Assembly: GCA_964508605.1 (NCBI GenBank)
Contig: CAZDUI010000003.1
Coordinates: 42,454-106,453 of the forward strand
Length of the DNA stretch: 64,000 bases
Direction: 5' to 3'
Source of the DNA: an uncultured Weeksellaceae bacterium
Lineage (GTDB): Bacteria > Bacteroidota > Bacteroidia > Flavobacteriales_D > CAZDUI01
Position numbers and translations under genes: made by a program. This document shows, in pieces, positions 24,033-57,014 of the stretch. The notes under the pieces are model-generated. The model ran no database searches, was not told the DNA's origin, and worked only from the letters and a program-made list of their open reading frames with translations. How positions within the stretch are numbered: position 1 is the first letter of the stretch; every line of letters starts with the position of its first letter.

Positions 24033-26096
24033 TTGTTTGCAGTCATAAGTTCAAAAGTGAAAGGAAAGATTATAAACCTTTGGTTGTGTGCAAAGTTACT
24101 TGTGCTGGTGGCCGGTGTTATATTTTCTTTCAGTGTAATTGCACAGCCTTTGGTAATTTCAGGGGTATCGCCCGCTGTTCCTTCTTGTGGTGCAAACGAT
24201 GGCGGCATTGTAGTGCAGATTTCAGGTAATTTCGGGCAGGTTACCTATAGCATTGATAATGGTGTGAATTTTCAGGCCTCCGCCACCTTTTCTGGTCTTA
24301 GTGCCGGCTTGTATCAGGTAGTTGCATTAGATTCGGCTGGGTTTTCAGATACGCTGGTTTATGTACTTGCCGGAGATGGTAATTTTATTGGAAGTGTTAA
24401 TGCTGTCGATCCTTTGTGTAACGGAGCATCAAATGGCGAACTTTCCGTTACATTAACCGGTGGCAGCGCTCCGTTTTTATACAGTTTTGATGGTGGAGGT
24501 GTATATGGCTCTTCAGCAACCGCAACAGGATTGCCAACGGGAATTTATAACGTTGTGGTTCAGGACGCGTCTTACTGTTTTGACACAGCTTCGGTTGTCC
24601 TTACAGAACCTGCGGTCGTTTCATTTACGCATTCAGTTATTAATGCAAGTTGCCCGGCAAATGACGGTTCCATAACAATTGCCGCTTCAGGTGGTTCGGG
24701 TGCATTACAATACAGTATTAATGGGGGAACCTCTTTTCAGGCAGGGAATGCATTTACAGGCCTGGCAGTTGGTGTTTACACCATTGTTGTTCAGGATGCA
24801 AATGGGTGCACATCCACTTCAGATGTTATTCTTGGTAGCGCTCCGGGTTTTGGCCCCGATATTATCATGTTAAATCACATTAATCCGTTGTGTAATGGTT
24901 CAGCAAATGGTTCCATTACTGTTATTGCAATGGGTGCTACACCATTAACGTATAGTATCGACGGTGGTTCAACGTTTACGGGAAGCAATGTTTTTACCTC
25001 TTTAACACCGGGTTCTTATCCTGTTATCGCTGCTGACGGAAATGGTTGCTTATCGGGTAGCCTGGTGGTTATTACCGAACCGGGTGTACTGCAATCAGTG
25101 ATTACAGCATTTAACGAAACCTGTGTTGGAGGAGACGGCTCAGTGAATTTATTTACTAGCGGGGGTACATCTCCGTACCAGTATAGTTTTGATGGTGGGG
25201 TTTCATTTTCATCATCCTCTTCTCTGTTAAATCAATCGGGAGGTTCGTTTAATATTGTTGTTACCGATAACAATGGCTGCACAGAAAATGCAACTGTAAC
25301 ATTGACATCGGGCTCGGGACCAACCATTCAAGGCATAAGTGTTGTAAATGCATCTTGTCCGGGTGTTAACGACGGCTCAATAGATATCAGCGCAATAAGC
25401 CAGTCCGGCAGTATTGCCTATAGTATTGATGGTGGCCTTGTGATGCACCCAATAGGATCTTTCTCAAATCTAACTACCGGAACCTATGATGTTTATCTGG
25501 TAGACGCTAACGGATGCTCAACGAGTCAAACTGTCATCATTAGCGGTCCGGTTACTCCATTTGCTGATTTTACTGCGGATGTTAATTCAGGTTTTATACC
25601 ACTTACGGTGAACTTTACGAATAATAGTATTGGGGCAACGGGCAATGATTGGAGTTTTGGTGTAACCGGCGCAACTGCAAATACTACTGACGCAAGTTAT
25701 ACTTATACAACAGGGGGCACTTACGTTGTGATGCTGGTGGTAACCGATGGTGTTTGTAACGACACAGCTACTGTCACAATTGAAGTTGATGGCGAGCCGG
25801 GCATTACGATTCCCAATATCTTTACACCGAATAACGATGGGGTGAATGACTTTTTCTTTGCACAACCTGTGGGAATCACTCAATTGAGTGGAGTAATTTA
25901 TAACAGATATGGCGAGATAGTTTATTTGTGGGAGGGTCCCGAAGGAGGCTGGGACGGAAGAACCATTCCTGCAGGCGTACCCTGTAGCGATGGGGTTTAT
26001 TTTTATTTAATTACCGCCACCGACTTAAATGGGGCACAAATTGAAGAAAAAGGAACGGTACATTTGCTGCGAACAACCAACCCACGTCAGCGTTAA
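24033..26096 (+). CDS. SprB-repeat / PKD-domain cell-surface protein with a T9SS type B (gliding-motility-associated) C-terminal sorting domain
   Basis: At least six repeats of C.G..DGSI..(A/S)GG..P..YSIDGG..F.....F..L..G.Y.V.V.D.NGC, then a PKD-like segment, then a C-terminal IPNIFTPNNDGVNDFF...GVYFYLI motif. Confidence 0.7.
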   Translation: MFAVISSKVKGKIINLWLCAKLLVLVAGVIFSFSVIAQPLVISGVSPAVPSCGANDGGIVVQISGNFGQVTYSIDNGVNFQASATFSGLSAGLYQVVALDSAGFSDTLVYVLAGDGNFIGSVNAVDPLCNGASNGELSVTLTGGSAPFLYSFDGGGVYGSSATATGLPTGIYNVVVQDASYCFDTASVVLTEPAVVSFTHSVINASCPANDGSITIAASGGSGALQYSINGGTSFQAGNAFTGLAVGVYTIVVQDANGCTSTSDVILGSAPGFGPDIIMLNHINPLCNGSANGSITVIAMGATPLTYSIDGGSTFTGSNVFTSLTPGSYPVIAADGNGCLSGSLVVITEPGVLQSVITAFNETCVGGDGSVNLFTSGGTSPYQYSFDGGVSFSSSSSLLNQSGGSFNIVVTDNNGCTENATVTLTSGSGPTIQGISVVNASCPGVNDGSIDISAISQSGSIAYSIDGGLVMHPIGSFSNLTTGTYDVYLVDANGCSTSQTVIISGPVTPFADFTADVNSGFIPLTVNFTNNSIGATGNDWSFGVTGATANTTDASYTYTTGGTYVVMLVVTDGVCNDTATVTIEVDGEPGITIPNIFTPNNDGVNDFFFAQPVGITQLSGVIYNRYGEIVYLWEGPEGGWDGRTIPAGVPCSDGVYFYLITATDLNGAQIEEKGTVHLLRTTNPRQR

Positions 26097-26115
26097 TAAA
26101 GAAAACGTAAAAAGT

Positions 26116-26628
26116 ATGTTAAAGAAGAGTATTGAAAAAGCATTGAACGACCAGGTGAAAATTGAGGCCTTATCGTCTCAGCATTACCTTGCAATGGCCT
26201 CCTGGGCTGAGGTAAAAGGTTACAACGGAACCGCAGAATTTCTTTATACGCATTCAGATGAAGAAAGAATGCACATGTTAAAGTTATTCAGGTATATTAA
26301 CGAAAGAGGTGGCGTTGCTGTGGTTCCGGAGTTGGAAAAACCTGTAACAAATTTTAAAGGACTTGATGAGGTTTTTCAGGCTCTTTTAAATCATGAAATT
26401 AAAGTTTCAGAGGAAATAAACAGTATTGTTGAATTATGCCTAAAGGAAAAGGATTTCACTACTCATAATTTTATGCAGTGGTACGTTAGCGAACAAATGG
26501 AAGAAGAGGCTTTGGCTAAAACCATTATAGACAAGCTGAATTTGTTGCAGGGTGATAAAAGCGGCTTGTATATCTTTGATAAAGATTTGGCTTCCATTCG
26601 CGCATCTATGCAGGTAACTGCAAATTAA
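26116..26628 (+). CDS. non-heme ferritin
   Basis: Ferritin-like di-iron residues (E..H, QHYLAMASWAE, EERMHM, NHEIKVSEEI); the probable start at 26116 avoids overlap with the upstream gene. Confidence 0.85.
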   Translation: MLKKSIEKALNDQVKIEALSSQHYLAMASWAEVKGYNGTAEFLYTHSDEERMHMLKLFRYINERGGVAVVPELEKPVTNFKGLDEVFQALLNHEIKVSEEINSIVELCLKEKDFTTHNFMQWYVSEQMEEEALAKTIIDKLNLLQGDKSGLYIFDKDLASIRASMQVTAN

Positions 26629-26639
26629 TAATTAAACTG

Positions 26640-27188
26640 TTGATGTGGTACCGGCTTGTGATATTGTTTTTACTTGCCGGTAGTTGTTCATTGCCCGGGT
26701 ATTCCCAAAAACGTGGTGGAGGCGGAAGAACTAAAGACGGAAGGGAAACATTTAATTCCCGTAAACAGAAAAATACCTCATACGGTTCTCAAAGAAGAGA
26801 TAGTTTTACTTACAAGTCCAGCCGCTCAAAATCAAAAAGGAGCAACGACCCTTTTGCATACCGCTCTAAACAAAAAGGAAAGGATAAAAACAAATCGGTG
26901 CCTTTTGCATACAAGTCAAAATCGCAAAAGAAATCAAAACAGCGTAACGATAATCTTTTTGGCTCTAAACAGGGTAAAAGTAATGCCAGGAAAGGCGGAA
27001 GTAATAAAGATTCTTTTGTGGGGGGCAGAAATAATTCTTCCAGAATTAAACGAAAGCAGGAACAGCGTGGAGTGGGTGATTTTGGTATCAGTAGAAAAAA
27101 AGCGGACAAGCTGAGGCAAAAGTCCAGAACGAAAGAGGAGAACGGCAAGATTTGGGAGCAGGAATTAAGGCGAAAGCCCAATTCTTGA
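26640..27188 (+). CDS. secreted (possible lipoprotein) lysine/arginine/serine-rich low-complexity protein
   Basis: Signal peptide MMWYRLVILFLLAGSCS; the mature part is about 30% K/R with repeated PFAY(R/K)SK motifs. Overlapping ORFs in other frames look like artefacts. Confidence 0.4.
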   Translation: MMWYRLVILFLLAGSCSLPGYSQKRGGGGRTKDGRETFNSRKQKNTSYGSQRRDSFTYKSSRSKSKRSNDPFAYRSKQKGKDKNKSVPFAYKSKSQKKSKQRNDNLFGSKQGKSNARKGGSNKDSFVGGRNNSSRIKRKQEQRGVGDFGISRKKADKLRQKSRTKEENGKIWEQELRRKPNS

Positions 27189-27276: not shown

Positions 27277-27807
27277 GTGATTCGGTTATTAACCATATTA
27301 TCATTGGTTCTGGTGTCTCTCACCGCCTTTTCGCCTGTTAATACATATCAACCTAACAATACTCAGGCTAAGTTCAGAGCATTGTATATTTACCAAATTG
27401 CTACTCTTGTGGATTGGCCTGCTCAATATAAAAATGGAAGTTTTATCATCGGTGTTTTTGGTGATGATAAAGTGTATGATGAGCTTGTTAAAAGTCACGG
27501 AGCTAAAACAGTAGGAAGCCAGCCGCTAAAACTATTAAAGTTCAATTCAGTTGAAGAGGTTTCAAAGTGTCATGTGTTGTACATTGCTCCGGACAAAAAC
27601 AGTTATTCGGCTGAATTGATTAAAAAGTATAAATCCAACAGCACGCTTTTTGCAACTGAATCTGCCGGAATGTTAAAATCGGGTGCCGTGGTTAATTTTT
27701 TAATCCACAACAATAAAGTTGCATTTGAACTTAGCAAAGCTAATGCTACGAAGTATAACCTTGTGGTTACCTCAACCGTTATGAATTATGCCGTAAATAA
27801 GGAATGA
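27277..27807 (+). CDS. YfiR-like periplasmic protein (DUF4154 family)
   Basis: 176 aa; signal peptide; KFRALYIYQIATLVDWP... pattern characteristic of DUF4154/YfiR. Confidence 0.55.
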   Translation: MIRLLTILSLVLVSLTAFSPVNTYQPNNTQAKFRALYIYQIATLVDWPAQYKNGSFIIGVFGDDKVYDELVKSHGAKTVGSQPLKLLKFNSVEEVSKCHVLYIAPDKNSYSAELIKKYKSNSTLFATESAGMLKSGAVVNFLIHNNKVAFELSKANATKYNLVVTSTVMNYAVNKE

Positions 27808-28688
27808 AGAAACTTATTACCATATGGTTTGTTTTCACCGCACTGATTTCAGGCGCGCAGATTTCCTATACCCACAAGGCATTTAAAGCGTATCAGGAAA
27901 ATAAGCTGGATATAGCCAGGGCTTATATTGATACAGCCATAACCGTATCCGCAGAGGCATCTTCCGCACAGACATGGCATATTAGAGGCTTTGTTTATAA
28001 GGAAATTTTTAAACTACAGGAGGCAGAAGATCATAAATCTCCTTCAAGAGAGGAATCATTAAAAGCCTTTATTAAATCTTCAGAGTTAGACGAAACGGGT
28101 GAGTTCAAGACGCAGAATGACAAAGGAATTTATTACATTGCTACTTCATTCTATAACCAAAGTGTTCTTACTCAGAACCCAACGCAATACCTTCTTTCCA
28201 TTGAATTATACGAGCGTTCAAAGGAAGTACACCGCCAACGAGACCCTGGATTCAACTCCGACAAGAAAGATGTTGAATTTTATAACGCGCTGGGCAGCAT
28301 GTTGAGCGAAACCTATGAACGCAACAAAGTAAAATATGCCGATTATGCCGACCTTGCTATTAAGTATTTGCAAGTATCTCTCAAAATTGAGTTAGATAAT
28401 CTTACTGCAAATCAATTAATTGGTGTATTATATTACAACAAAGGCGTTGATTTGATCTTAAATCTTAGTCCTGATGCTTCTTTGGATGAATTGATAAAAG
28501 TTCAGGATCTCTGCGTTGAATTGTTCCTAAAATCTGAACCATATTTGCTGCAGGCACATAAAAAGGATCCCACCAATTGTGAAATTATGACAGGATTAAA
28601 AGGTGTTCGCTTCAATCTTAATGATAAAGAGCAAGTTAAGCTTTGGGACGACAAACTTCGCGAACTCGGTTGTCCTGTTGATGAATGA
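27804..28688 (+). CDS. hypothetical secreted helical protein (294 aa)
   Basis: Signal peptide MKKLITIWFVFTALISGAQ; ATGA overlap with the upstream gene; helical (TPR-like) composition. Confidence 0.4.
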   Translation: MKKLITIWFVFTALISGAQISYTHKAFKAYQENKLDIARAYIDTAITVSAEASSAQTWHIRGFVYKEIFKLQEAEDHKSPSREESLKAFIKSSELDETGEFKTQNDKGIYYIATSFYNQSVLTQNPTQYLLSIELYERSKEVHRQRDPGFNSDKKDVEFYNALGSMLSETYERNKVKYADYADLAIKYLQVSLKIELDNLTANQLIGVLYYNKGVDLILNLSPDASLDELIKVQDLCVELFLKSEPYLLQAHKKDPTNCEIMTGLKGVRFNLNDKEQVKLWDDKLRELGCPVDE

Positions 28689-28752
28689 TTTCTTTGAACA
28701 TCCCGTTATTTTTTTGAATATTTGACGGTTCGAAACAAGAGTTCGGTACCGG

Positions 28753-30585
28753 ATGAAAGTAAAATTTACAATAGGACGCAAGATAGGCACTGGTTTTGGT
28801 GTGCTTATATTCTTCATTATCATTGTATTTACTATAACCGCCAATACAGTCAGAGAAGGTATTGAGAGTTTTACCCAAAGCCGGGAACTAAACGAGAAGA
28901 TTACAACACTGTTCGATCCGTCTATCAAACAGGTTACCCTGCTGAAAGAAAAAATAAAGGAAAGCAAAAGACTTATACAAAACTGGGTAAACTCACCCAG
29001 CAGAGAGGATAACCCCGAGAAAATTCAGTTAAAAATACTTCTGTCTGATGTGATTCCCAAGACCCAGGACACGCTGACATCCTTACAGGCCCGGTGGGAT
29101 TCAGAAACCGAACAGCTATTATTGAAAAAAGTAAATGCCAATCTGGACACGCTTTTTGAGTATTATCAAATAATAATGGACCACTTGCCTGATTTGGGCA
29201 GTTATGACGACCCCATTGCGTTTCTTTCGGCGCGCGACTATGTAGTGCCTAATGGTCTTATTGACATCAAAAGCCAGCAGGTAGATAATTTGATTTCAGA
29301 TTTGATAAACCGCCAGAGTAAGTCGCGGCGATACGCTATCAGAATGCAAAACGAGTCATCGCAGGAAACCACCTACTCCTTTGACAATCTTTTGAAATTG
29401 GTAATTATTTTGGGTATTGCCCTTATGATTGGCGCTACCCTTATTGCCACATTTACTACCCGTTCTATTGTGCGTCCGGTTCACGAGCTGCGTGACGTGT
29501 TGTTAGGTTTGGGCAGGGGGTTGTTTCCGCGGAAAACCCTTCGTCCAACCAGAGATGAAATTGGGGAAATGGGTGATGCACTGAATTCACTGGTGGATGG
29601 TCTGAAGCGTACAACGGAGTTTTCCAAACAGGTAGGTTCCGGTAATTTTGACTACGATTATTTACCTTTGAGTGATGATGATACTTTGGGTCATGCATTG
29701 CTTAAAATGAGAGACGACCTTGCCGAAAACGAGCGCATATTGGAACAAAAAGTGGTAGAACGTACCGAAGAGGTGGTTCGGCAGCGCGACGAAATTGAGA
29801 GGCAGCGCATGAAGGTTGAGGAACTGTATAAAGATGTTACAGACAGCATTCGTTACGCAAAAAGACTACAAGATAGCATATTGCCGCCCGAGAGATATAT
29901 TCAGCAAATTCTACCCAACAGCTTTGTATTGTTTAAACCCAAGGATATTGTTTCAGGTGATTTTTACTGGTTTGAGCAAAGTAAAGGTAAAATTTTGTTT
30001 GCCGCTGTTGACTGTACCGGTCATGGTGTACCCGGAGCGTTTATGAGTTTGGTGGGAGCAAATGCTTTGAATCAGGCTGTAAGAGAACATGGACTTACCA
30101 AACCATCTGAAATTCTTGACGATTTAAACAAGCTTTTAAGCGAAGCCCTGAATAAAGGCATGGAAGAACAGGCTGTGAGAGACGGTATGGATTTGGCCTT
30201 GTGTGCTATAGACCCGGAAAAAAGAACCCTTGAATTTGCCGGGGCAAATAACCCTTTATATCTGGTAAGAAACGGAGAATTAATTCAAACTAAACCCGAT
30301 AAACTGGCAATTGGCGGAATGGACCATGGTGCCCATAAATATAGGAATCATCAGGTAGAAGTTGCGTCAGGCGATATCATTTACATTTTTAGTGACGGTT
30401 ACGCCGATCAGTTTGGTGGAGAAAAAGGTAAAAAATTCATGTACAAACAGTTCAAAGAGACTTTGAAGGAAATAGCGCCGCTTCCAATGAATAAACAAAG
30501 AGATGAATTGAACCGCATTATTGAAAATTGGAGAGGAATTTACGAGCAAATTGATGATATATTGATAATTGGTGTAAAATTGTAA
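28753..30585 (+). CDS. membrane sensor protein phosphatase: TM-periplasmic domain-TM-HAMP-coiled coil-PP2C (SpoIIE/RsbU-like)
   Basis: Two TM helices (aa ~14-36 and ~213-235) flank a ~175-aa extracytoplasmic domain; a HAMP segment follows; the C-terminal PP2C region carries SGDFYW...AVDCTGHGVPGAFMS...DGMDLAL...FSDGYADQ. Confidence 0.75.
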   Translation: MKVKFTIGRKIGTGFGVLIFFIIIVFTITANTVREGIESFTQSRELNEKITTLFDPSIKQVTLLKEKIKESKRLIQNWVNSPSREDNPEKIQLKILLSDVIPKTQDTLTSLQARWDSETEQLLLKKVNANLDTLFEYYQIIMDHLPDLGSYDDPIAFLSARDYVVPNGLIDIKSQQVDNLISDLINRQSKSRRYAIRMQNESSQETTYSFDNLLKLVIILGIALMIGATLIATFTTRSIVRPVHELRDVLLGLGRGLFPRKTLRPTRDEIGEMGDALNSLVDGLKRTTEFSKQVGSGNFDYDYLPLSDDDTLGHALLKMRDDLAENERILEQKVVERTEEVVRQRDEIERQRMKVEELYKDVTDSIRYAKRLQDSILPPERYIQQILPNSFVLFKPKDIVSGDFYWFEQSKGKILFAAVDCTGHGVPGAFMSLVGANALNQAVREHGLTKPSEILDDLNKLLSEALNKGMEEQAVRDGMDLALCAIDPEKRTLEFAGANNPLYLVRNGELIQTKPDKLAIGGMDHGAHKYRNHQVEVASGDIIYIFSDGYADQFGGEKGKKFMYKQFKETLKEIAPLPMNKQRDELNRIIENWRGIYEQIDDILIIGVKL

Positions 30586-30589
30586 CGTC

Positions 30590-31171
30590 ATGACAGAATG
30601 GTGGTCGCAACTTTCAGGAATGGAACAGGTTTATTGGGGATTTGCCATTCCGGCAACCATAATATTCCTTGTTCTTTTGGTACTTACGTTAATTGGCGGT
30701 GAAGCGGAACACGTAGACATCAACACTGACGTTGATTTAGATGGTGACGCTACTCCCGGAGGATTTCAGTTTATTACTGTCAAAAATCTGGTAGGTTTTT
30801 TCACCGTTTTCGGATGGGCAGGCATTTCGGCACTGCAGGGTGGAGCCGGAAACACCACATCCCTCATTATTGCTTCTGCATCGGGTTTTGGAATGATGTT
30901 GCTAATGGCTGCTTTGTTTTATTATATGAGCAAACTTCAGCACAGCGGAACATTGAACGTTTCAAATGCTATGAATATGACGGGTGAGGTTTACTTAACT
31001 ATTCCCGCTTCTAAGAAGGGCTTGGGAAAAGTGCAAATTAAAATACAGGGTTCGTTGCGCGAATTGGAAGCAATGACCGACGAAAACGAAGAAATTCCAA
31101 CAGGAAGAGCAATTCAGGTTACAGGTATTACACAAAGTGATATTTTAATAGTTAGAACAATAAATAATTGA
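30590..31171 (+). CDS. NfeD-like / YqiJ-family membrane protein (flotillin partner)
   Basis: 193 aa; N-terminal TM helices and a C-terminal beta-rich OB-like domain; 4-nt gap to the flotillin gene. Confidence 0.55.
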   Translation: MTEWWSQLSGMEQVYWGFAIPATIIFLVLLVLTLIGGEAEHVDINTDVDLDGDATPGGFQFITVKNLVGFFTVFGWAGISALQGGAGNTTSLIIASASGFGMMLLMAALFYYMSKLQHSGTLNVSNAMNMTGEVYLTIPASKKGLGKVQIKIQGSLRELEAMTDENEEIPTGRAIQVTGITQSDILIVRTINN

Positions 31172-31175
31172 AGTT

Positions 31176-32825
31176 ATGATGTTAATGGCAGATGAATTTA
31201 TACCCGGAGTAAGTGAGAGCCTTGTGGTTTTGATTGGCCTGATTGTGGGCTTTATTGTATTGATTCTGCTTACGTTTGCAAGACGTTACAGGCGGTGTCC
31301 TTCTGATAAAATTCTTGTTGTTTACGGCAAGGTGGGCGGCGATCAGCGTTCCGCACGCTGTATTCATGGTGGTGCTGCGTTTATTTGGCCCATCATTCAG
31401 GATTTTGCTTTTCTTGAATTAAAGCCGATTCCAATTGAAGTAAATCTTACCAATGCCCTGTCCAAGCAAAACATTCGTGTAGACGTACCGTCCAGGTTTA
31501 CCGTGGGTATTTCAACCGAGCCTGCCATTATGAACAATGCTGCCGAACGCTTGCTTGGCTTGACACCATCGCAGATACATGACATTGCCAGGGATATAAT
31601 TTTTGGACAACTCAGATTGGTCGTGGCTACAATGGATATTGAAGAAATTAACAGCAATCGCGATAAATTTCTTGCGAATGTTAGTGCCAACGTTGAACAG
31701 GAATTGAAAAAAATAGGTCTTCGACTTATTAACGTAAACGTAACCGATATTAAGGACGAGTCGGGGTATATTGAGGCACTGGGTAAAGAAGCAGCTGCTA
31801 AAGCCATTAACGATGCCCGTAAGAGTGTGGCTGAAAAGAACCGCGACGGTTCCATTGGTGAAGCCAACGCGATGCAAGACCAAAGGGTTCAGGTTGCCGA
31901 TGCAAATGCGCTTGCCAAAATTGGTGAAGCACAGGCACAACAGAAAGAAAGGGTAGAAATTTCAACCGCAAATGCAGAGGGAGCCATTGGTGAAGCGAAT
32001 GCAAATCAGTTGGAAAGAGTTCAGACGGCAGATGCTGAATCAAAAGCTAAAATTGGTGAAGCGCAAGCAAAACAGCGGGAACGCGTGGAAACAGCTGAAG
32101 CCAATGCACGTGCCATTGAAGGCGAAAACACTTCAAAAATAGCCATTGCTGAATCGGATGCTGCGCGTCGTGAAAAACAAGCTGAAGCTGAAAGAAGGGC
32201 TATTGCATCAGAAAAAGTACAGGCAGCAAAGGCATTGGAAGAAGCATACAGTGCTGAAAAACATGCTGAAATTGTTCGTGCTGAAAGAGAAAAGGCTTCA
32301 CAAAATGCCGACATCATTGTTCCTTCGGTAATTGCCAAAGAGAAGGCAGAAATTGATGCTGAAGCCCGTGCCGAGCAGATTCGAAGAATAGCCAAAGGTG
32401 AAGCCGATGCGTTATTGATGAGAAAACAGGCCGAAGCACAAGGTTTGTATGAAGTACTTACCAAACAGGCTGAAGGTCTTGACAGAATTGTTAAAGCGGC
32501 AGGCGATGATGCACGTAATGCTGTGTTGCTGTTGATTGCTGATAAGCTTCCGGAATTGGTTAAAACGCAGGCCGAAGCTATCAAGAATATTAAAATTGAC
32601 AAAATTACTGTTTGGGACGGTGGTTCGGGAACCGACGGAAAGACCAACACAGCCAACTTTATATCAGGACTGTATAAATCAGTGCCGCCACTTGAAGATA
32701 TGTTTAATATGGCAGGCATGGAGCTGCCGGCTTATCTGAGAAAGAAGACAGAACCACTGCCAGAGACAACCCAAGTGACAGATAAAGATTCTGCTGCGAG
32801 TGACGAAGAAAAACCGGTTCAGTAA
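31176..32825 (+). CDS. flotillin family protein (SPFH/band-7 domain; YqiK/FloT-like)
   Basis: N-terminal TM; SPFH domain; a long EA-rich coiled coil with three ~30-aa IGEA(N/Q)A... repeats; C-terminal tail. Confidence 0.8.
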   Translation: MMLMADEFIPGVSESLVVLIGLIVGFIVLILLTFARRYRRCPSDKILVVYGKVGGDQRSARCIHGGAAFIWPIIQDFAFLELKPIPIEVNLTNALSKQNIRVDVPSRFTVGISTEPAIMNNAAERLLGLTPSQIHDIARDIIFGQLRLVVATMDIEEINSNRDKFLANVSANVEQELKKIGLRLINVNVTDIKDESGYIEALGKEAAAKAINDARKSVAEKNRDGSIGEANAMQDQRVQVADANALAKIGEAQAQQKERVEISTANAEGAIGEANANQLERVQTADAESKAKIGEAQAKQRERVETAEANARAIEGENTSKIAIAESDAARREKQAEAERRAIASEKVQAAKALEEAYSAEKHAEIVRAEREKASQNADIIVPSVIAKEKAEIDAEARAEQIRRIAKGEADALLMRKQAEAQGLYEVLTKQAEGLDRIVKAAGDDARNAVLLLIADKLPELVKTQAEAIKNIKIDKITVWDGGSGTDGKTNTANFISGLYKSVPPLEDMFNMAGMELPAYLRKKTEPLPETTQVTDKDSAASDEEKPVQ

Positions 32826-32849: not shown

Positions 32850-35800
32850 ATGCGTAAATTACTATTTATATTGCTTGTTTTGACGCATATGCGTGCAAAT
32901 ACGCAAGACAATATACGGTTTCTGAATATTGACATTAACAGTGGTATTTCTCAAAGTTCAGTAAATGCAATCTTACAAGACCAGTTGGGATTTGTTTGGT
33001 TTGCAACGCAAGATGGATTAAACAGGTTTGATGGTTATCGGTTTAAAGTTTATCGGAATAATCCCGATAACAGCAATACCATTAGCAATAATTTTGTTCA
33101 GTGCCTTGAACAGGACGAAACCGGTATTATTTGGGTAGGTACGCAAAGCGGATTGAATTCCTTTGATCCGGAAACAGAAAGATTTAACAGGTATGCCGCC
33201 GGAGAACAATCAGGATTGGGAAGCAATAAAATTACGACTGTCTTTTATTCAGGTTCGCATAGATTGTTTATTGGCACTCAGGATGCGGGTCTATATGAAA
33301 GAACCGGTGAAAGTAAGTTCAATAAGGTAAAACTCGATGCCTCCGGGGTGCGTTCTGTTTTTGAGGATGCTGCCGGAAGAATTTGGGTTTGTTCAAACAA
33401 CGGTTTGTATTTAAACAATGAAGGAGAGTACAGGAGAATAATGCCTAACAACATCGGGGAAGCCTGGACCATTACGGAAGATACATCAGGGGTATTCTGG
33501 GTGGGAAATATTAATGGTTTATACCGACTGACACCTGCAGGGAAGGAATTTTTATTTGAAGAATTTCAAAACATCACGTATCTGGCCAATTTTCCGGGAA
33601 TTCGCTGCTTAAAAACCGACGGTGACAATAATATCTGGGTTGGAACCAACGGAAAAGGGGTATTTAGTTTTTCGGCTTCAGAAGACGAACCAGCCATTCA
33701 CCGGTACCGCAAGCAGAGTTTCAATCCGTATAGTTTGCAAAGCGATGAAGTGTATTGTTTGGTTGAAGACCACCAGGGTATTTTATGGATAGGTACAAAA
33801 GACGGGGTGAGCCGTTTTGACAGAATTCGTCAGGGTTTTTTACACGTAGCCCGCGATTATGACAACATCAATTCGCTGCACGACAATACTATCTGGAGTT
33901 TTCAGGAGAGTTCGCCCAATAAATTACTGATAGGAACCCGTAGAGGTGTAACCCTTTGGAATAGAGGTACAGGTGAATTCTATGAATTTCAGCGGGAAGC
34001 AAATAATCCTAATACTCCCAACGATAACAGTGTGCTGTCTTTGTGTGTTGACAAACAGGGCAACATATATACAGGTTATGTAGATGGGGTATTTCGTTTG
34101 GTTATCGACCCTGAGGGAAGAGGAACTTTTAGCGAAATAAAAATCAGGGACAACACACCGGCGGGTGCCGATATGCGGGTGTATGCAATTAAAGAAGACA
34201 ATCAAAACAGGTTGTGGATTGGTACCCGCGAAGGGTTGGCAGTTTACGATAAAAAGACAGGCAAATCTGTTTTTTACAGGAACAATCCGGAAGACAGCAA
34301 AAGCCTTCCTGAGAACATGATTCGTGCGGTGTACATTAATTCACAGAACGATATCTGGATTGGAACGGATGGTGGCGGGTTGTGCAGGGTGATTGAACGT
34401 AATGGAAGAATGGAATTTATTGCATTCAACAAGCAATCAGAAATTCAAATTCCAAGCAATTCAGTATTGTCTGTTTGGGAAGAGAAACCGGGTATTCTTT
34501 GGTTGGGAACATACGGAGGGGGGCTAATCAGGTTTGATTACAAGAACAAAAAGTATTCAGTGTTTTCTGAAGTAAGCCACGGCCTGGCGAATGATGTAAT
34601 ATATGGAATACTGGGTGATAATAAGAATAATTTATGGCTAAGTACTAATAGCGGGCTTTGCAGGTTTAATATAAAAAACCTGAATGTAAAAAACTTTAAG
34701 CAAAAGGACGGAATTCAAAGCAACGAATTCAACATCGGTGCTTATGGTATCACTTCTCAGGGTGAGTTTTTGTTCGGTGGAATCAACGGGTTCAATGTTT
34801 TTCACCCGGAGCAGATTCGGACGAATATGTTTGCACCCAAAATGGTGTTCACCGATTTTTTAATCAATAATGAACCCTATGTAATTGGCGCAAACTCTGA
34901 TTTTGAAAAGGCGCTAACCTATACCCATCAAATTAATCTGAATCACAAGGACAACAAATTTACAATAGAATTTGCAGCACTTCATTATAGCGACCCTGAT
35001 GGAAATCAGTATAAATATAAATTGGTGGGTATTGATAAGGACTATACCTACACGAAAGGTGGCGACCGCAGAGCAAATTATTCGAATTTACCTCCCGGTG
35101 AATATACTTTTGAATTATACGGAGCAAACAGCGATGGCCGGTGGAGTAAAGAACCGGTGAAGTTGAAAGTTGTAATTATTGCGCCATACTGGCGTACCGA
35201 TTGGTTTCAGGGAGTGGTGATTCTTATTATTTTAAGTGCAACATTTTACGTGTTTATGCGGCAGGTTAAAGAGATACGGCAACAGAAGATGCGATTGGAG
35301 AGATTAGTGGAAGAGCGCACGCGTGAGGTAATCCAGCAAAAGGAGAAAATTGAAGAGCAGACGGCCATGTTGAAAATGGAAAAAGAGAAAGTTGAGAAGT
35401 TATTGCTGAATGTGTTACCCGAGCAAACAGCAGATGAATTAAAAAGCAAGGGGAAGGCCCAGGCCCGTAGTTATAAACAGGTAACCATAATGTTTACCGA
35501 TTTTAAGAACTTTACCAAGCTGGCTGAACAATTCCGGCCACCCGAGCTGGTAGAGCGTTTAGATGCTTACTTCAGTAAGTTTGATGATATTATCAGCAAA
35601 TATCAGCTCGAAAAAATTAAGACGATTGGAGATGCATATATGTGTGCGGGCGGCGTTCCTGTGAGAAATGCTGAAAATCCAATTTATACAACACTGGCGG
35701 CACTTGAAATTCAGGATTATATAAAGAAAGATAAAGAGGAGAGGTTGGCTGCGAATGAAATACCCTGGGAACTGAGAATTGGTATCAATACCGGCGAAGT

Positions 35801-36698
35801 GGTTGCCGGGGTGATAGGGTCAAAGAGATTTGCATACGATGTATGGGGTAATGCCGTAAATGTGGCCGCCAGAATGGAAACGGCTAGCGAACCGGGCAAA
35901 GTTAACGTTTCGGGAAAAACCTTTGAATTAATTGAACCCTTCTTTGAATGTACCTACCGTGGTAAAATTCCGGCAAAAAACAAAGGACATATTGATATGT
36001 TCTTTGTTGAGCGGATTAAGCCGGAATTGAGTGTTAACGGCGAAGGTTTATATCCGTCTCAGGCCTTTTGGGATTACGTAAATCTGCATTTATTCAGCAG
36101 TATTAACTATATGAAAGCAGAGCGGTTTATTATGAAACTGCTTGAGAAAAAATTATCGCCAAAACTACATTATCACAGTATAGCCCATACCCGTGATGTA
36201 ACCAAAGCTGCTGAAAGAATTGCGTTGATGGAGGGTGTGCGCGGCGAAGACCTGTTCCTGTTACAAACAGCGGCTACCTATCATGATGCCGGTTTTGTGG
36301 AACGGTATGAGGCCAATGAACCCATTGGAGTGCGTATGGCACGCGATATTCTTCCCAGATATGGGTATGAACCCGATCAAATTGATATTGTTGCCGGTTT
36401 AATCTATGCCACCCGCATCCCTCATGCGCCCAAAAGTCACCTGCAGGAAATTATTTGTGATGCCGACTTGGATTATTTGGGAAGAGATGATTTTCATGAA
36501 ATTGCCGATAAATTAAGAATAGAATTGCGCGAGCACGGAAAAATAAACAGCGACCGCATGTGGGATGAAATCCAGGTGAAATTTCTTACTCAACATAAAT
36601 ACTTCACCCGTTCTGCCATAAAATTAAGACAGGAAAAAAAGGAAAAGCACATTGAAGAGATTAAGGAAAAGCTCAAGGTGCATCAGTATGCGGATTAA
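32850..36698 (+). CDS. multidomain sensor: signal peptide, two-component-regulator beta-propeller (Reg_prop repeats), Y_Y_Y domain, TM, coiled coil, class III adenylate/guanylate cyclase, C-terminal HD phosphohydrolase domain
   Basis: Recurrent W.GT..GL..(F/Y) propeller repeats; Y_Y_Y region (KYKLVGIDKDYTYT...YTFELYGANSDGRWS); TM VVILIILSATFYVF; cyclase motifs VTIMFTDFKNFT and IKTIGDAYMCAGG; HD motifs HSIAHTRDV...YHDAGF...ICDADLD. Confidence 0.75.
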   Translation: MRKLLFILLVLTHMRANTQDNIRFLNIDINSGISQSSVNAILQDQLGFVWFATQDGLNRFDGYRFKVYRNNPDNSNTISNNFVQCLEQDETGIIWVGTQSGLNSFDPETERFNRYAAGEQSGLGSNKITTVFYSGSHRLFIGTQDAGLYERTGESKFNKVKLDASGVRSVFEDAAGRIWVCSNNGLYLNNEGEYRRIMPNNIGEAWTITEDTSGVFWVGNINGLYRLTPAGKEFLFEEFQNITYLANFPGIRCLKTDGDNNIWVGTNGKGVFSFSASEDEPAIHRYRKQSFNPYSLQSDEVYCLVEDHQGILWIGTKDGVSRFDRIRQGFLHVARDYDNINSLHDNTIWSFQESSPNKLLIGTRRGVTLWNRGTGEFYEFQREANNPNTPNDNSVLSLCVDKQGNIYTGYVDGVFRLVIDPEGRGTFSEIKIRDNTPAGADMRVYAIKEDNQNRLWIGTREGLAVYDKKTGKSVFYRNNPEDSKSLPENMIRAVYINSQNDIWIGTDGGGLCRVIERNGRMEFIAFNKQSEIQIPSNSVLSVWEEKPGILWLGTYGGGLIRFDYKNKKYSVFSEVSHGLANDVIYGILGDNKNNLWLSTNSGLCRFNIKNLNVKNFKQKDGIQSNEFNIGAYGITSQGEFLFGGINGFNVFHPEQIRTNMFAPKMVFTDFLINNEPYVIGANSDFEKALTYTHQINLNHKDNKFTIEFAALHYSDPDGNQYKYKLVGIDKDYTYTKGGDRRANYSNLPPGEYTFELYGANSDGRWSKEPVKLKVVIIAPYWRTDWFQGVVILIILSATFYVFMRQVKEIRQQKMRLERLVEERTREVIQQKEKIEEQTAMLKMEKEKVEKLLLNVLPEQTADELKSKGKAQARSYKQVTIMFTDFKNFTKLAEQFRPPELVERLDAYFSKFDDIISKYQLEKIKTIGDAYMCAGGVPVRNAENPIYTTLAALEIQDYIKKDKEERLAANEIPWELRIGINTGEVVAGVIGSKRFAYDVWGNAVNVAARMETASEPGKVNVSGKTFELIEPFFECTYRGKIPAKNKGHIDMFFVERIKPELSVNGEGLYPSQAFWDYVNLHLFSSINYMKAERFIMKLLEKKLSPKLHYHSIAHTRDVTKAAERIALMEGVRGEDLFLLQTAATYHDAGFVERYEANEPIGVRMARDILPRYGYEPDQIDIVAGLIYATRIPHAPKSHLQEIICDADLDYLGRDDFHEIADKLRIELREHGKINSDRMWDEIQVKFLTQHKYFTRSAIKLRQEKKEKHIEEIKEKLKVHQYAD

Positions 36699-36841: not shown

Positions 36842-39800
36842 ATGAAAGTTTTATTGGGTTTAATATTTGCGGTTTTAACACTATTACAGGCCAACGCAAT
36901 TTCCTACACTTGGAATGGGGTCATCTCATCTGACTGGAATACAGCTACAAACTGGACTCCCGCTGGGATACCGGGATTAGGTGATGATGTAATTGTTGTG
37001 GCGGCACCAAATAATTGTGGTTTAGATGCACCACGAACCATACTAACAATTACTGTGAATTCGGGTACTTTAGATTTAAACACAAACACATTGATGGTAA
37101 CATCAACCACCACCCTGACAGGAGGTAATGTAGATAACGGAGTGTTGACAGTTGTTGCCGCTTCTACCGACGTTGCCACCATGGGAGGTACCGTATTTGG
37201 AGGTGCTTCTTTTTTGAATATTACCTCAGGAAGAATAATATTGAATGGTGGTCAATACAGCGGCCCCGTAGTTTTAGAGCAGACCGGTTCAACCAACACC
37301 GGTGGTACCGGTAACGCTACGTTTAATGCATCTCTGTCGTTTACATTGTCGGGTACCGGATACTGGAGAATTGCAGGGAACTCTGTCTTTAACAGTACCG
37401 TGACCTATATAAATAACGGAGGTAGTTATATTCTGCCTGAACTTTCTGCAGCCAATACTTATAACGGTACTTTGAGTGTTCAAAACAATTCTTCGTCTAA
37501 TATAAGACTTGCATATAACGGCGCCAACCAGTATTTTGGTGATATTGATATTTCCAATACATCTACCGGTTCAGTCCTTTTTTGTGAACTGACTACGGGT
37601 TCTGCATCTCTTCAAGGAGCGGCAACATTGTTTGCCGGAGCCGGCGGAATAAATTCGGGTAGCATAACGTTAAGAAGAATTACACAAGTGAACCCCACTG
37701 CCATTAATCTTTCCGGTGGCCTAAATGCAACTATCAATATAACAGATTGCGTGTGGCAGGGTAATGTTAGTTTCGCAAGTGGCAGACTTACCACCAATGG
37801 CTCCGTATATAATGGACCTGCTCGTCTCGAAAAAACATCAATAACTGCTGACTACAGCGGAGGTAATACTTTTAACAGTACAGCAAATCTGGTTCATACG
37901 GGTTCTGTGAACTCTTTCCGGTTCGGAAGGACTAATCCCGACACTTTTAATGGAGATGTTTTAATAGAAAACTATAACGATGGTCATATTCGGCTAGCTG
38001 ACAATACTACAGGCAATGCTATAAACGGTGATCTTACAGTAATCAATAACTCAACCAATTGGGTATATTTTTGTAATGAAGGCACCTCTGATCTTTTGAT
38101 AAACGGAAATATTGAATTTAATTCAACAGGGTCATCTTTGGGTGTTAGTTTTGGAACGAGCGGTAATCCGGTAACCCAGGCTGCAGGTTTTAATCTAACT
38201 ATAGGCGCAACAGGTTGGGATGCCGGAGAATTGAGATTTACTGATTTTGTTCAATCCGGAGCATCAGCAGTAAATTTAACCCTAAACGGTAATGGCTTCT
38301 TTAATTCCGTAAATTCGGACTGGGCGGGAAATATGTCTGTAATAGCGCCACGAATTCGTACAAGCTTTTCTGATTTTCAAGGCACTGTGTCGTTTGAAAA
38401 GACCAGTGGAACAGATGATGTTTCTGGTGGTAATGTGTTTCATCAGAACACGTTGCTAATTCACAGCGGTGCAAATGATTTCAGATTCGGGCAAACCAAT
38501 GCCGATATGTTCCATCAACAGTTGCGTGCAAGAAACAATGGTACAGGCACCGTTTATCTGGCGTATAATTCGGCGGGAAATCAATTCAACGGCAATGTGC
38601 TTTTTGAAAACATTACCGGTGGCGGGGTATATGTTTGCGAAAATTCGGGTACAGCAACCCTGGCTAACGGATTTTCATTCCAGGTAGGTCCACTGGGTTT
38701 TGCAAATGGTCAGTTACGAATTCGCAATACCACTCAAATAGGTAATACAGCCCAGAATATTACTACAAGCGGAGCTTCTCGAATTATATTGTCAGATAAT
38801 TCCTTTGACGGAGCGGTAGCCTTTACCAGCGAACGAATGTTTCTTAGCGGAAATACATTTAATTCTCAGGCCGTGTTTACAAAAAACGGAGCAGGTAATG
38901 ACGCTTCTGCCGGTGGAAATATTTTTAACGGACCTACTTTCCTTTCACTTTCAGGTACCGGCTATTTTTTAATGGCCAATGTGAATCCAGATATTTTTAA
39001 TGACGACCTTTCGGTGAATAATTCTGGTTCAGAATTCGTACATCTTTCATATAATGCTGCCGGAAATGAATTTAACGGTGATGTAACGTTTGAGTCGGTG
39101 GGTAGTGCCGGTGTCAGAATAGGAATAAATGGTGGCACAACAACACTTGCAAATGGCTCAACATTAACTGTGGGTGCTTTGGGTTATAATTCCGGTGAGC
39201 TGCGTTTTCAAAATTTTACGCAATTGGGCAATACACCACAAACGCTGGCGCTGAGCGGTACCTCCCGGTTGCTTTGTCTTGAATCGGTATGGAATGGTAA
39301 TGTTTCCTTTGAATCTCCACGTGTTTATACCCGCGGAACAGTGTATAACGGTACTGCTCTTTGGCATAAAACAGGCACTACAGATGATGGTTGCGCGGGC
39401 AATAATATCTTTAATCAACCAACTCAGATTTTAAATTCATCTGCTTCTATTTTATACTTCAGCCAAACAAATCCCGATATTTTTAATGCTTCGCTTTCAA
39501 TAAGAAATACAGGCACATCCACTATCAGATTGGCTGAAAGTTCTACAGGTAACCAGTTTAACGGAGATATTACTATAGAATCAACGGGTAGCGGTGGAAT
39601 CTTTTTTGGCCAGGGTGGAGGCGATGCCTTTTTGGCAAACGGTTTTACAGTAACCGTAGGTGCACCGGGCTTTGACTCCGGAGAGTTAAGATTCAATAAA
39701 TTTACACAGCTTGGCAATACTGCACAGAATATAACATTAACCGGAACTGCATATTTGTTGAATATGGAAAGTAATTGGAACGGAACTGTAAGTTTTGCTG

Positions 39801-46334: not shown

Positions 46335-46784
46335 TTAGTTTAATGTTGGAATAACCAGTTGATGAATCACCGGGGTTGTATTACCAAGATTATCATTTAC
46401 CGGGCAGCGGCTCAGTGCGTCTTCCCATATACTTTCTAATACAGCTGACGGAGCAGCACTGTCAATTACGGCTTTTACCCTGATGGTTTCAAACCCTGCC
46501 CTTGAGGTGGTTTCGGAACCAAAAAGCTTTGCCGGATTGATATCGCCATCAATTTCAAGGTGCAGCCCGTTCAAAACCACCTTTCTTTGTTCGGCTACCA
46601 GATGCAGAACTACATTTAAGCAACCGGCATATCCCGCAAGAATATACTCAACCGGGTTGGGGGCTACATCGGCGCCTCCCAACGATGGAGGCTCGTCTAC
46701 GGGTATTTCAAATTGACGGGCACGGGCTTTAAACAAGGTGCTTCCTGCACTGTCGCCGCTTACTTTAAAGTTTACTGTTGACAT
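46335..46784 (-). CDS. OsmC/Ohr family peroxiredoxin-like protein
   Basis: 149 aa; the two conserved Cys regions (GYAGC and SRCPV) of the OsmC fold. Confidence 0.7.
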   Translation of the reverse strand: MSTVNFKVSGDSAGSTLFKARARQFEIPVDEPPSLGGADVAPNPVEYILAGYAGCLNVVLHLVAEQRKVVLNGLHLEIDGDINPAKLFGSETTSRAGFETIRVKAVIDSAAPSAVLESIWEDALSRCPVNDNLGNTTPVIHQLVIPTLN

Positions 46785-46786
46785 GG

Positions 46787-48157
<1,371 letters not shown>

Positions 48158-48435: not shown

Positions 48436-48574
48436 CATTTATCTTTCCGGATACGTTCATTCGTTCCGGCAGGATTTGGCACCGGTTTTCCAATCCCGAC
48501 CCCGAAGAATCGTGACTTTAAGTTGGTTGCCAGAGGGTCAACGAGCCTGTTCTCTCGCCTCTTCTTCATAAACG
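48436..48574 (-). ncRNA. SAM-I (S-box) riboswitch aptamer in the metY leader
   Basis: The minus-strand RNA reads CGUUUAUGAAGAAGAGGCGAGAGAACAGGCUCGUUGACCCUCUGGCAACC...GGUGCCAAAUCCUGCCGGAACGAAUGAACG...GAUAAAUGG. It matches the S-box consensus blocks AUCAAGAGAGGCGGAGGGA, GGCCCGAUGA, CCCGGCAACC and GGUGCCAAUUCCUGCAGCGGAAACG, and a P1 helix CGUUUAU/AUAAAUG can form. Confidence 0.7.
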
Positions 48575-57008: not shown

Positions 57009-57014
57009 ATTCGT

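Follow-up and report, generated by a model that had tools for sequence, protein, structure and literature searches.

What does an exported protein of the YfiR family do beside a membrane-bound serine phosphatase? The question is raised by three close-packed plus-strand genes in the ORF list of a 64 kb stretch of DNA (the window), which encode a DUF4154 (YfiR-family) protein, a TPR protein and a HAMP-PP2C sensor (Table 1). YfiR resides in the periplasm, where it represses a membrane sensor (PMC4655355). In the YfiBNR (TpbB)/HmsCDE systems of Pseudomonas, E. coli and Yersinia an exported DUF4154 protein likewise stands beside a 2TM-HAMP sensor and a third exported protein, and the logic of periplasmic accessory control over a cytoplasmic output domain is common to these systems and the triad. 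To our knowledge, nearly all work on YfiR concerns its repression of a single diguanylate cyclase in Proteobacteria. An earlier note on this DNA had taken the triad for a YfiBNR system rewired to a phosphatase output.

Table 1. Features of the triad and of its frequent neighbours in the window.
Feature	Position	Strand	Size or residues	Basis
Ferritin gene	26029..26628	+		Pfam Ferritin, E 8e-37
DUF4154 (YfiR/HmsC-family) protein, putatively secreted	27277..27807	+	176 aa	
TPR-fold protein, putatively secreted	27804..28688	+	294 aa	
Inner-membrane sensor phosphatase (predicted)	28753..30585	+	610 aa	
Periplasmic sensor domain of the phosphatase	28858..29388	+	aa ~36-212	AF2, PDB fold matches
HAMP domain of the phosphatase	29452..29607	+	aa 234-285	Pfam PF00672, E 1.5e-07
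SiaA-like PP2C (SpoIIE-family) region with preceding helix	29740..30573	+	aa 330-607	PDB 6k4e match
Reg_prop / Y_Y_Y / class III nucleotidyl cyclase / HD protein	32850..36698	+	1282 aa	Pfam

The adjacency of the three genes is far beyond chance. Their order (DUF4154, TPR, phosphatase) is the same in 80/80 species-level Flavobacteriales genome loci with enough upstream DNA, among them loci of Crocinitomicaceae, Vicingaceae and Parvicellaceae. The 80 genome loci were retrieved with the phosphatase (identity 47–62%); the DUF4154 gene was seen in 74 and the TPR gene in 79 of them, all misses being due to contig truncation, and the identity of the TPR proteins goes down to 24–30%. The same order recurs in 33 of the 78 metagenome loci found with DUF4154. 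In the window the start codon of the TPR gene and the stop codon of DUF4154 share the 4 nt ATGA; this gap of -4 nt is found in 44 loci, and the gap between the TPR and phosphatase genes has a median of ~20 nt. The genes flanking the triad differ from locus to locus. The co-occurrence of the three genes is strict and translationally coupled, and the triad forms a conserved module of many Flavobacteriales that probably serves periplasmic sensing.

The first protein is a member of the DUF4154 family, scoring 98.6 bits (E 4.4e-28, cutoff 24.9) with Pfam PF13689 'YfiR/HmsC-like' and aligning with E. coli YfiR at an hhalign probability of 94.5% and 20% identity. Its translation shows a hydrophobic signal sequence at the N-terminus. 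The earlier note had claimed that a DUF4154 protein is paired here with a TM-periplasmic-TM-HAMP-PP2C protein; the ORF positions proved exact, Pfam and AF2 give the domains, and the pairing occurs elsewhere with the middle gene included. In view of the DUF4154 score and the conserved pairing, this part of the note stands. The NCBIfam YfiR equivalog NF053586 gives the window protein 25.3 bits, under the cutoff of 85, and a search of the PDB sequences with the DUF4154 family profile returned no YfiR chain at E <= 1. The closest and best-scoring curated subfamily is NF053591 (TOL_0243 YfiR-like; 96.3 bits, cutoff 125), with which the Vicingaceae ortholog L056 reaches 125.8 bits and the protein of L089 114.5 bits. 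Its counterpart is NF053592 ('sensor histidine kinase, YfiR-like protein-associated'), which shows that YfiR-like proteins with a partner sensor other than a GGDEF protein are known to curators. The N-terminus of the triad phosphatase does not match the NF053592 kinase model (15.8 bits, cutoff 194); the triad differs from the TOL_0243 pairing by its PP2C partner and by an obligatory TPR protein.

Among 69 DUF4154 orthologs, conservation reaches 95% or more at F41, W47, P48, G54, F56, G62, Q82, H99, L124, G136, N140, F141, E151, L162 and A172. The YfiR of P. aeruginosa carries two conserved Cys pairs (C71-C110 and C145-C152), which are the basis of its DsbA/redox dependence (PMC4655355), and the four cysteines of E. 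coli YfiR (55, 92, 127 and 134) correspond to both of these pairs. Both are missing from the triad protein. Its family has Cys at most at the counterpart of E. coli C92, where it is not invariant, and never at the other three positions; the domain contains no Cys in 23 of 75 orthologs, one in 44 and two in 8. The redox switch proposed earlier is contradicted by the missing pairs.

The middle protein was modelled by AF2 with a pLDDT of 92.9 as an all-alpha protein with 13 helices after the signal peptide. Foldseek returned 31 PDB matches at E <= 1e-3, all of them TPR proteins; the family profile matches consensus-TPR chains, and Pfam TPR matches are present in orthologs, the window protein itself having no Pfam match above threshold. 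The predicted signal-peptidase-I site is followed by Gln19, which is invariant in sets of 21 and 27 sequences. There is no lipobox and no Cys in the signal peptide, no OmpA match in Pfam and no similarity to YfiB (hhalign probability 0.4%). The middle protein is a soluble TPR protein and not a YfiB-type component. It may be a functional analogue of YfiB, as the earlier note had suggested.

The sensor phosphatase consists of TM1, a periplasmic four-helix bundle, TM2, HAMP, a coiled linker and PP2C, according to the AF2 model (pLDDT 87.9) and Pfam. The model places the helices of the N-terminal part at residues 7-80, 88-112, 118-144, 148-164 and 169-254. The catalytic region matches PDB 6k4e ('putative serine phosphatase', P. 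aeruginosa SiaA) with E 7.5e-50, and Pfam SpoIIE (PF07228) covers residues 411-609 with 82.2 bits. Asp403, Asp420, His424, Asp477, Asp480, Asp548, Asp552, Asp601 and Asp602 are each kept in at least 95% of 69 orthologs; the metal-binding Asp are among them, and the PP2C catalytic site is intact.

SiaA has the architecture 2TM-HAMP-PP2C (PMC7647112). The triad phosphatase has the same one, and the catalytic domains of the two proteins are clearly homologous; NCBIfam SiaA (NF038263) matches residues 283-609 only (248 bits, equivalog cutoff 700) and leaves the N-terminal sensor region without a match. The sia operon of P. aeruginosa is siaABCD, and we know of no DUF4154 or TPR gene in it. The triad, for its part, has no genes nearby for the kinase SiaB, the phosphoprotein SiaC or the cyclase SiaD. 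The earlier statement that partner-switching genes are lacking near the triad was borne out: of those window ORFs that were scanned with Pfam, none is a STAS, HATPase_c_2, DUF1987 or GGDEF gene, and no RsbW or SiaB/C genes lie near the triad in the window. An RsbW-like kinase accompanies only three closely related loci (L003, L013 and L014).

The best PDB matches of the periplasmic domain are the NarQ sensor-TM-HAMP fragment, the ligand-binding domain of Vc1313 and the MCP model 9a65 (TMq 0.71). Pfam 4HB_MCP_1 gives E 0.46 for the domain of the window protein and 2.9e-06 for a single member out of 58 in the family. The domain is fast-evolving and divergent, with only Pro56, Trp78, Lys90, Trp115, Leu145 and Tyr151 reaching 95% conservation among 69 orthologs. 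Compared by hhalign with the CHASE8 domain of DgcN/YfiN it shows no similarity (probability 0.1%), so that of the layout said to be the same as in YfiN the topology holds and the periplasmic domain does not. With NarX/NarQ and Tar-type MCPs the phosphatase has in common the predicted fold and topology of sensor-TM-HAMP, and its sensor family, like Tar-type MCPs, includes members with MCP signalling domains. It differs from these proteins by the non-significant 4HB_MCP_1 similarity and by the phosphatase output; the accessory protein is DUF4154 instead of the classical two-lobed binding protein that such sensors use.

Set against YfiBNR, the triad has PP2C instead of GGDEF as output, a predicted four-helix bundle instead of the CHASE8 of YfiN (DgcN is CHASE8 plus GGDEF), and a soluble TPR protein instead of the OmpA/Pal-like outer-membrane lipoprotein YfiB/HmsE. 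The gene order is R-like, TPR, sensor as opposed to R-N-B, and the host belongs to Bacteroidota as opposed to Proteobacteria. Only one of the three YfiBNR parts has a homologue in the triad. As there are no Cys pairs, no CHASE8 and no YfiB-type protein, the triad is not a rewired YfiBNR but a different module, which has only the DUF4154 accessory protein in common with it. A redox or envelope-stress switch of YfiBNR type, working through disulfide folding and sequestration by a YfiB analogue with GGDEF swapped for PP2C, is thus highly improbable; it can draw on the DUF4154 membership of the first gene and on the three-component periplasmic architecture with a HAMP-linked output, but its redox part is already lost with the Cys pairs, CHASE8 is not what the sensor carries, the third protein lacks a lipobox and is no lipoprotein of OmpA type, and the first protein stays far below the score of a YfiR equivalog.

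If not YfiN, what does the DUF4154 protein accompany? The profile of the periplasmic domain collects 731 representative proteins (50% clustering), and the triad exposes a large unannotated periplasmic sensor family. Among the best 150 matches 82 are full-length proteins, with PP2C in 24 and MCPsignal in 31; the remaining ones have GAF, PAS or histidine kinase outputs. DUF4154 recurs beside other proteins with the same sensor domain: it adjoins three of six sampled family members without PP2C (L088, L089/L090 and L172), the other half having no DUF4154 within 5 kb, and a sensor-GAF gene directly follows DUF4154 in 4 metagenome loci. In partial correlations of distance matrices over 69 loci, with the catalytic domain controlled for, DUF4154 co-varies with the periplasmic domain (r = 0.55, permutation p = 0.001), a mirror-tree signal that could also stem from rapid or saturating change common to periplasmic proteins, and not significantly with the cytoplasmic HAMP-linker (r = 0.04). 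DUF4154 tracks the sensor domain and not the output. A TonB-dependent receptor gene lies immediately 3' of DUF4154 in 29 of the 78 metagenome loci, often in tandem DUF4154-receptor pairs, and in 12 of the 78 DUF4154 has no obvious partner; at a single metagenome locus, L147, the phosphatase is missing beside DUF4154 and TPR. Both the many relatives of these two kinds and L147 are points against the gating scheme set out next, as are the sampled sensors with no DUF4154 nearby and the finding of no linked substrate candidate.

We are inclined to believe that the exported DUF4154 and TPR proteins act on the periplasmic bundle and gate PP2C via TM2 and HAMP. The DUF4154 protein would dock on the bundle and hold HAMP-PP2C in one signalling state, by analogy with YfiR-YfiN and with binding-protein/MCP pairs. 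The YfiR-YfiN interface itself is not transferable to the triad because the partner domain is not homologous to CHASE8. The TPR protein would bind DUF4154 or the bundle and set or relieve the held state on an envelope or nutrient cue. The altered phosphatase activity would then shift the Ser/Thr phosphorylation state of a cytoplasmic protein whose gene lies elsewhere, most likely a partner-switch protein of SiaC/STAS type. In this scheme we infer the protein-protein contact, the sign of regulation, the signal and the substrate.

It is also conceivable, although rather unlikely, that DUF4154 is a small-molecule binder that reports ligand occupancy to the bundle and not a sequestered repressor. 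MBP reports ligand occupancy to Tar in this way, and LuxP to LuxQ. The DUF4154 fold would resemble half a periplasmic binding protein, the TPR protein would be only a scaffold or chaperone, and the cue, a nutrient or metal, would be imported with the involvement of TonB-dependent receptors. Similarity of the YfiR fold to the ABC transporter domain structures 3LFT and 3LKV (PMC4655355) is consistent with this, as are the frequent TonB-dependent receptor genes directly 3' of DUF4154, among them locus L089, where an MCP with the same sensor domain as the phosphatase is followed by DUF4154 and a TonB receptor. The best structural matches of the sensor being ligand-binding four-helix bundles, and a ferritin gene upstream of the triad on the same strand in 61 of the 72 genome loci whose flanks are long enough, also fit. 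The ferritin link, however, is lineage-restricted (seen at only 7 of the metagenome triads) and perhaps no more than synteny, and the conserved, translationally coupled TPR protein would have no role in classic binding-protein/receptor pairs. Unlikely as well is co-expression without contact, where the three proteins would serve a common envelope process and the sensor would bind its own ligand via the bundle, untouched by DUF4154 and TPR. Four-helix bundles do usually bind ligands directly; the sensor family is often without DUF4154 and DUF4154 often without the sensor family, so neither generally needs the other. Against such independence stand the absence of any triad loss in 80 genome loci despite the turnover of flanking genes, the recurrence of DUF4154 by the same sensor domain with varied outputs and gene orders, and the restriction of the co-variation to the periplasmic domain.

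The gated-phosphatase reading suggests that the role of YfiR-type accessory proteins of the periplasm is not confined to cyclic-di-GMP signalling, and that the DUF4154 fold is used without cysteines, with another docking domain and alongside a Ser/Thr phosphatase, in another phylum; relatives of the protein adjoin MCP, GAF and TonB-receptor genes. No principle is overturned, accessory control of HAMP-linked sensors and SiaA-type phosphatases both being established. The triad is a compact three-gene system for asking how DUF4154 proteins recognise sensors, and an entry point into PP2C signalling of Flavobacteriales.

Two neighbours may extend the system. The gene of the Reg_prop-cyclase-HD protein directly follows the phosphatase on the same strand in most of 43 loci (with a gap of 5 nt in L004) and is absent from the metagenome triad loci; whether this protein, or ferritin, is a member of the module is uncertain. 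A broader and doubtful proposal is that Bacteroidota DUF4154 proteins are general periplasmic co-receptors, which would couple TonB-dependent uptake across the outer membrane or another envelope cue, perhaps iron in view of the linked ferritin genes, to the large unnamed family of bundle sensors with PP2C, MCP, GAF/PAS and histidine kinase outputs. The same proposal would add the dedicated TPR adaptor of the Flavobacteriales triad, giving a three-protein periplasmic relay that controls Ser/Thr phosphorylation and, via a co-transcribed Reg_prop-cyclase-HD protein, cyclic-nucleotide signalling. The distance from ferritin to DUF4154 is only 43-90 nt in ~25 genome loci, and ferritin is possibly co-transcribed with the triad.

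The best-supported interpretation of the three adjacent genes for a DUF4154 protein, a TPR protein and a sensor-PP2C phosphatase (referred to as the triad and listed in the table) is that they encode a dedicated three-protein periplasmic sensing module. In this scheme the exported DUF4154 and TPR proteins would act on a sensor phosphatase of the SiaA type through its four-helix bundle. The families of the proteins, their export signals and the linkage of the genes are established, and so is the catalytic competence of the phosphatase as judged from its sequence. The rest of the window (GC content ~40%) carries typical Bacteroidota housekeeping genes and genes for type IX secretion cargo, and the genomes nearest to it, found with the phosphatase alignment in a scan that took a single genome for each species, are Flavobacteriales MAGs. 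A sigma-70 promoter and terminator scan of the window, whose scope does not extend to Bacteroidota promoters, was uninformative because it returned 29 promoter-like sites with 30.8 expected.

Features of the window, in order of position
Feature	Position	Strand	Remarks
Four predicted type IX cargo proteins	24033-26096, 36842-42373, 49902-51296, 58875-59663	+	CHU_C or Por_Secre_tail C-terminal domains
Ferritin and 182-aa Lys/Arg/Ser-rich low-complexity ORF	26029-27188	+	directly upstream of triad
DUF4154 gene (gene 1)	27277-27807	+	176 aa ORF
TPR gene (gene 2)	27804-28688	+	294 aa ORF; 4-nt ATGA shared with gene 1
Sensor phosphatase gene (gene 3)	28753-30585	+	610 aa ORF
NfeD-like and flotillin pair	30590-32825	+	between phosphatase and cyclase genes, gaps 4-24 nt
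Reg_prop-cyclase-HD gene	32850-36698	+	1282 aa: Reg_prop beta-propeller repeats, Y_Y_Y, class III adenylate/guanylate cyclase, C-terminal HD
Homoserine dehydrogenase	43958-45232	-	methionine-related cluster
Alpha/beta hydrolase	45240-46328	-	methionine-related cluster
OsmC-like	46335-46784	-	methionine-related cluster
Cys/Met PLP enzyme	46787-48139	-	methionine-related cluster; downstream of SAM riboswitch
SAM riboswitch	48436-48574	-	Rfam RF00162, 64.9 bits; upstream of methionine-related cluster; ordinary
Two tandem paralogous DUF4369 + AhpC/TSA thioredoxin-like genes	55773-58130	+	411 and 371 aa

The phosphatase alignment recovered 205 relatives, the best 80 of which (47–62% identity, full length; from Crocinitomicaceae, Vicingaceae, Parvicellaceae and other Flavobacteriales) were analysed by ORF calling and with HMMs built from the three triad families. 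The pairing of DUF4154 with a PP2C sensor proposed in the earlier note recurs well beyond the window: among these best 80 loci, the TPR and DUF4154 genes are present in the same order and on the same strand in every one that reaches far enough upstream. The HMMs counted 83 phosphatase, 79 TPR and 74 DUF4154 genes, all misses being due to contigs that end in or before the gene. The gap between the DUF4154 and TPR genes is -4 nt in 44 loci and that between the TPR and phosphatase genes has a median of ~20 nt. Look-ups by exact protein also returned the triad, with differing flanks, at 40–66% DUF4154 identity. Triad loci number roughly 110 in all; complete genomes with the triad include OZ246010.1, OZ253949.1, OZ254088.1 and OZ260100.1, and its cultivable carriers include Sanyastnella coralliicola, Crocinitomix and Vicingus serpentipes. 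In 69 complete triads, pairwise distances of DUF4154 and of the periplasmic domain of the phosphatase are correlated when the catalytic domain is controlled for (partial r = 0.55, permutation p = 0.001), with a value of 0.44 for TPR and the periplasmic domain and no correlation of DUF4154 with the cytoplasmic HAMP linker (partial r = 0.04). These values agree with the periplasmic parts having co-evolved, but as evidence they are weak, because the same effect could arise from fast and saturating divergence of all these parts (mean distances 1.05–1.79, with 0.56 for the catalytic domain).

The product of gene 1 is clearly a member of the Pfam family DUF4154 ("YfiR/HmsC-like"; E 4.4e-28, 98.6 bits with a cutoff of 24.9), as the earlier note had assumed. 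The closest NCBIfam model, "TOL_0243 family YfiR-like periplasmic protein", gives 96 bits (cutoff 125; a Vicingaceae ortholog barely passes with 125.8 bits), and the YfiR equivalog gives 25 bits (cutoff 85). E. coli YfiR is aligned by hhalign with the gene 1 family profile over the whole domain (probability 94.5%, 20% identity). A PDB sequence search with the family profile recovered no YfiR chain, so the homology rests on Pfam and on this alignment. YfiR of P. aeruginosa requires C145-C152 for folding, which is the basis of its DsbA/redox dependence (PMC4655355), and the four cysteines of E. coli YfiR match both conserved pairs of that protein. Among them, the position of C92 is the only one sometimes kept in the gene 1 family, and it is not invariant; the domain contains no cysteine in 23, one in 44 and two in 8 of 75 orthologs. 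Cysteines this few and variable do not support a disulfide-based switch, and the redox mechanism that had been suggested by analogy with YfiBNR, the c-di-GMP system of YfiR, YfiN and YfiB, is contradicted by them.

DUF4154 is in fact the sole component of the triad homologous to YfiBNR. The middle protein had been regarded as a possible counterpart of YfiB, yet it lacks both a lipobox cysteine and an OmpA domain, and comparison by hhalign revealed no similarity to YfiB of E. coli (probability 0.4%). Pfam gave nothing above threshold for this protein, whereas its AF2 model is all-helical (pLDDT 92.9) and every significant Foldseek match of the model in the PDB is a TPR protein. The family profile matches consensus-TPR chains as well, and many orthologs carry precomputed TPR matches of Pfam. 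The signal peptide at its N-terminus is followed by an invariant Gln19; a glutamine after the signal peptidase I site is a Bacteroidota pattern, which Gln19 fits. As for the likeness of gene 3 to YfiN (DgcN in E. coli), the topology of the transmembrane segments is common to both, whereas the domain that YfiR would bind differs: in DgcN it is CHASE8, to which the periplasmic profile of gene 3 shows no similarity (probability 0.1%).

The AF2 model of the N-terminal 300 residues of the phosphatase (20 sequences, pLDDT 87.9) consists of TM1, a helical bundle (helices 7–80, 88–112, 118–144, 148–164 and 169–254) and HAMP. Its best structural matches are the sensor-TM-HAMP fragment of NarQ, the ligand-binding domain of the chemoreceptor Vc1313 and the MCP model 9a65 (TMq 0.71). 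W78, K90, L145 and Y151 are conserved residues at the tip of the periplasmic domain. The sensor domain matched no named family in Pfam or NCBIfam, apart from a non-significant match to 4HB_MCP_1. A search of 1.84 billion representative proteins with the profile of this domain alone gave 731 matches at E <= 1e-3, of which 508 also passed E <= 1e-10. The best 150 matches include 82 full-length proteins; PP2C is present in only 24 of these, and the outputs of the other 58 are MCPsignal (31), GAF (22), PAS and HisKA/HATPase_c (5–7).

Pfam places HAMP at residues 234–285 and SpoIIE/PP2C at 411–609 of the phosphatase. Its catalytic half matches a "putative serine phosphatase" (PDB chain 6k4e, E 7.5e-50). 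SiaA is the best NCBIfam model (248 bits over residues 283–609 only; the equivalog cutoff is 700). Two TM segments, HAMP and PP2C likewise make up the architecture of SiaA (PMC7647112). The aspartates that bind metal show at least 95% conservation across 69 orthologs, and the enzyme is therefore probably active. Genes for STAS, HATPase_c_2 (RsbW), DUF1987 (SiaC) and GGDEF were not found among the window ORFs scanned against Pfam, in agreement with the earlier statement that partner-switching genes are missing nearby; the substrate is presumably encoded elsewhere. An RsbW-like HATPase_c_2 gene 3.5 kb downstream in one locus (L003) was rejected as a part of the module, since it is confined to three close relatives (L003, L013 and L014).

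Among 78 metagenome loci found with a 5-sequence DUF4154 alignment, 33 have DUF4154 followed by TPR and, on contigs that reach far enough, by the sensor-PP2C gene. DUF4154 directly precedes a TonB-dependent receptor in 29, often as tandem pairs, and a sensor-GAF gene without TPR in 4; the remaining 12 have no evident partner and unrelated housekeeping neighbours. The TonB receptor loci yielded no gene of the sensor family, and at a single locus, L147, DUF4154 and TPR occur but the phosphatase is missing. Starting from the sensor domain, the genomic surroundings of six members without PP2C were inspected. DUF4154 precedes a GAF-PAS protein (P0135, locus L172), and downstream of an MCP (P0119, L089/L090) come, in this order, DUF4154, a TonB-dependent receptor and a protein of 514 aa. 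Immediately upstream of P0097 (L088) lie a TPR-family gene (E 8e-92) and, before it, a contig-edge fragment resembling the DUF4154 C-terminus. No DUF4154 occurs within 5 kb of P0115, P0123 or P0133. These varied contexts indicate that DUF4154 recurs beside the sensor domain whatever the output, and that outside the triad neither partner is obligatory to the other. YfiR-like proteins are already recorded with a histidine kinase (NCBIfam NF053591/NF053592), so coupling of DUF4154 to non-GGDEF sensors is not new in principle. A full-text literature search returned no description of a DUF4154-PP2C or DUF4154-TPR module, and for DUF4154 itself only YfiB-YfiR structure work.

The main alternative is that DUF4154 serves as a ligand-loaded co-receptor. 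The fold of YfiR is similar to a domain of an ABC transporter (PMC4655355), and the linkages to TonB receptors and to ferritin point in the same direction. Ferritin lies upstream of the triad in 61 of the 72 genome loci with enough flank, only 43–90 nt from DUF4154 and without the K/R-rich ORF in ~25 of them, and at only 7 metagenome triad loci. Given this strong linkage in genomes and its scarcity in metagenomes, ferritin is kept as a possible member of the module whose position may reflect synteny. For the three-protein module itself, contact between the proteins is what we infer, as are the signal, the sign of regulation and the substrate.

P0097 (513 aa, L088 1125-2666) has the sensor domain, HAMP and ~250 C-terminal residues without a Pfam match, which may be a further unnamed output domain of the module. 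Large TPR_12-SpoIIE (PP2C) proteins adjoin non-PP2C sensor-family genes at L091 2847-4964 (GAF) and L171 1-271 (MCP), a hint of an additional link in trans between the sensor family and PP2C phosphatases. The receptor next to P0119 (L089 5001-11497 and L090) is a Plug/TonB-dependent protein of 826 aa, and the adjacent 514-aa protein is secreted and has no Pfam match. Two to three consecutive pairs of DUF4154 and TonB-dependent receptor occur in L099, L101, L104, L116, L124 and L166.

The flanks of the triad vary among the genome loci. The true start of the window ferritin is probably Met29, near 26113. The K/R-rich ORF between ferritin and DUF4154, with a signal-like N-terminus in the window, is present or absent by locus; such ORFs recur by position and composition and do not cluster by sequence. 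Downstream, the Reg_prop-cyclase-HD gene is found in 43 loci, in most of them directly after the phosphatase (5-nt gap in L004), a large surface protein in 22 and a universal-stress-like gene in 11. A class III cyclase with HD is an unusual output for an HTCS-type (hybrid two-component) sensor with Reg_prop and Y_Y_Y. The NfeD-like and flotillin pair is inserted in only 11 loci, the window among them, where it comprises a 193-aa membrane protein without Pfam match, called NfeD-like from its position, and a FloT-like Band_7/flotillin protein of 549 aa. The type IX cargo proteins of the window include an SprB-repeat protein, an 1843-aa protein without other Pfam match and an RCC1-repeat protein.
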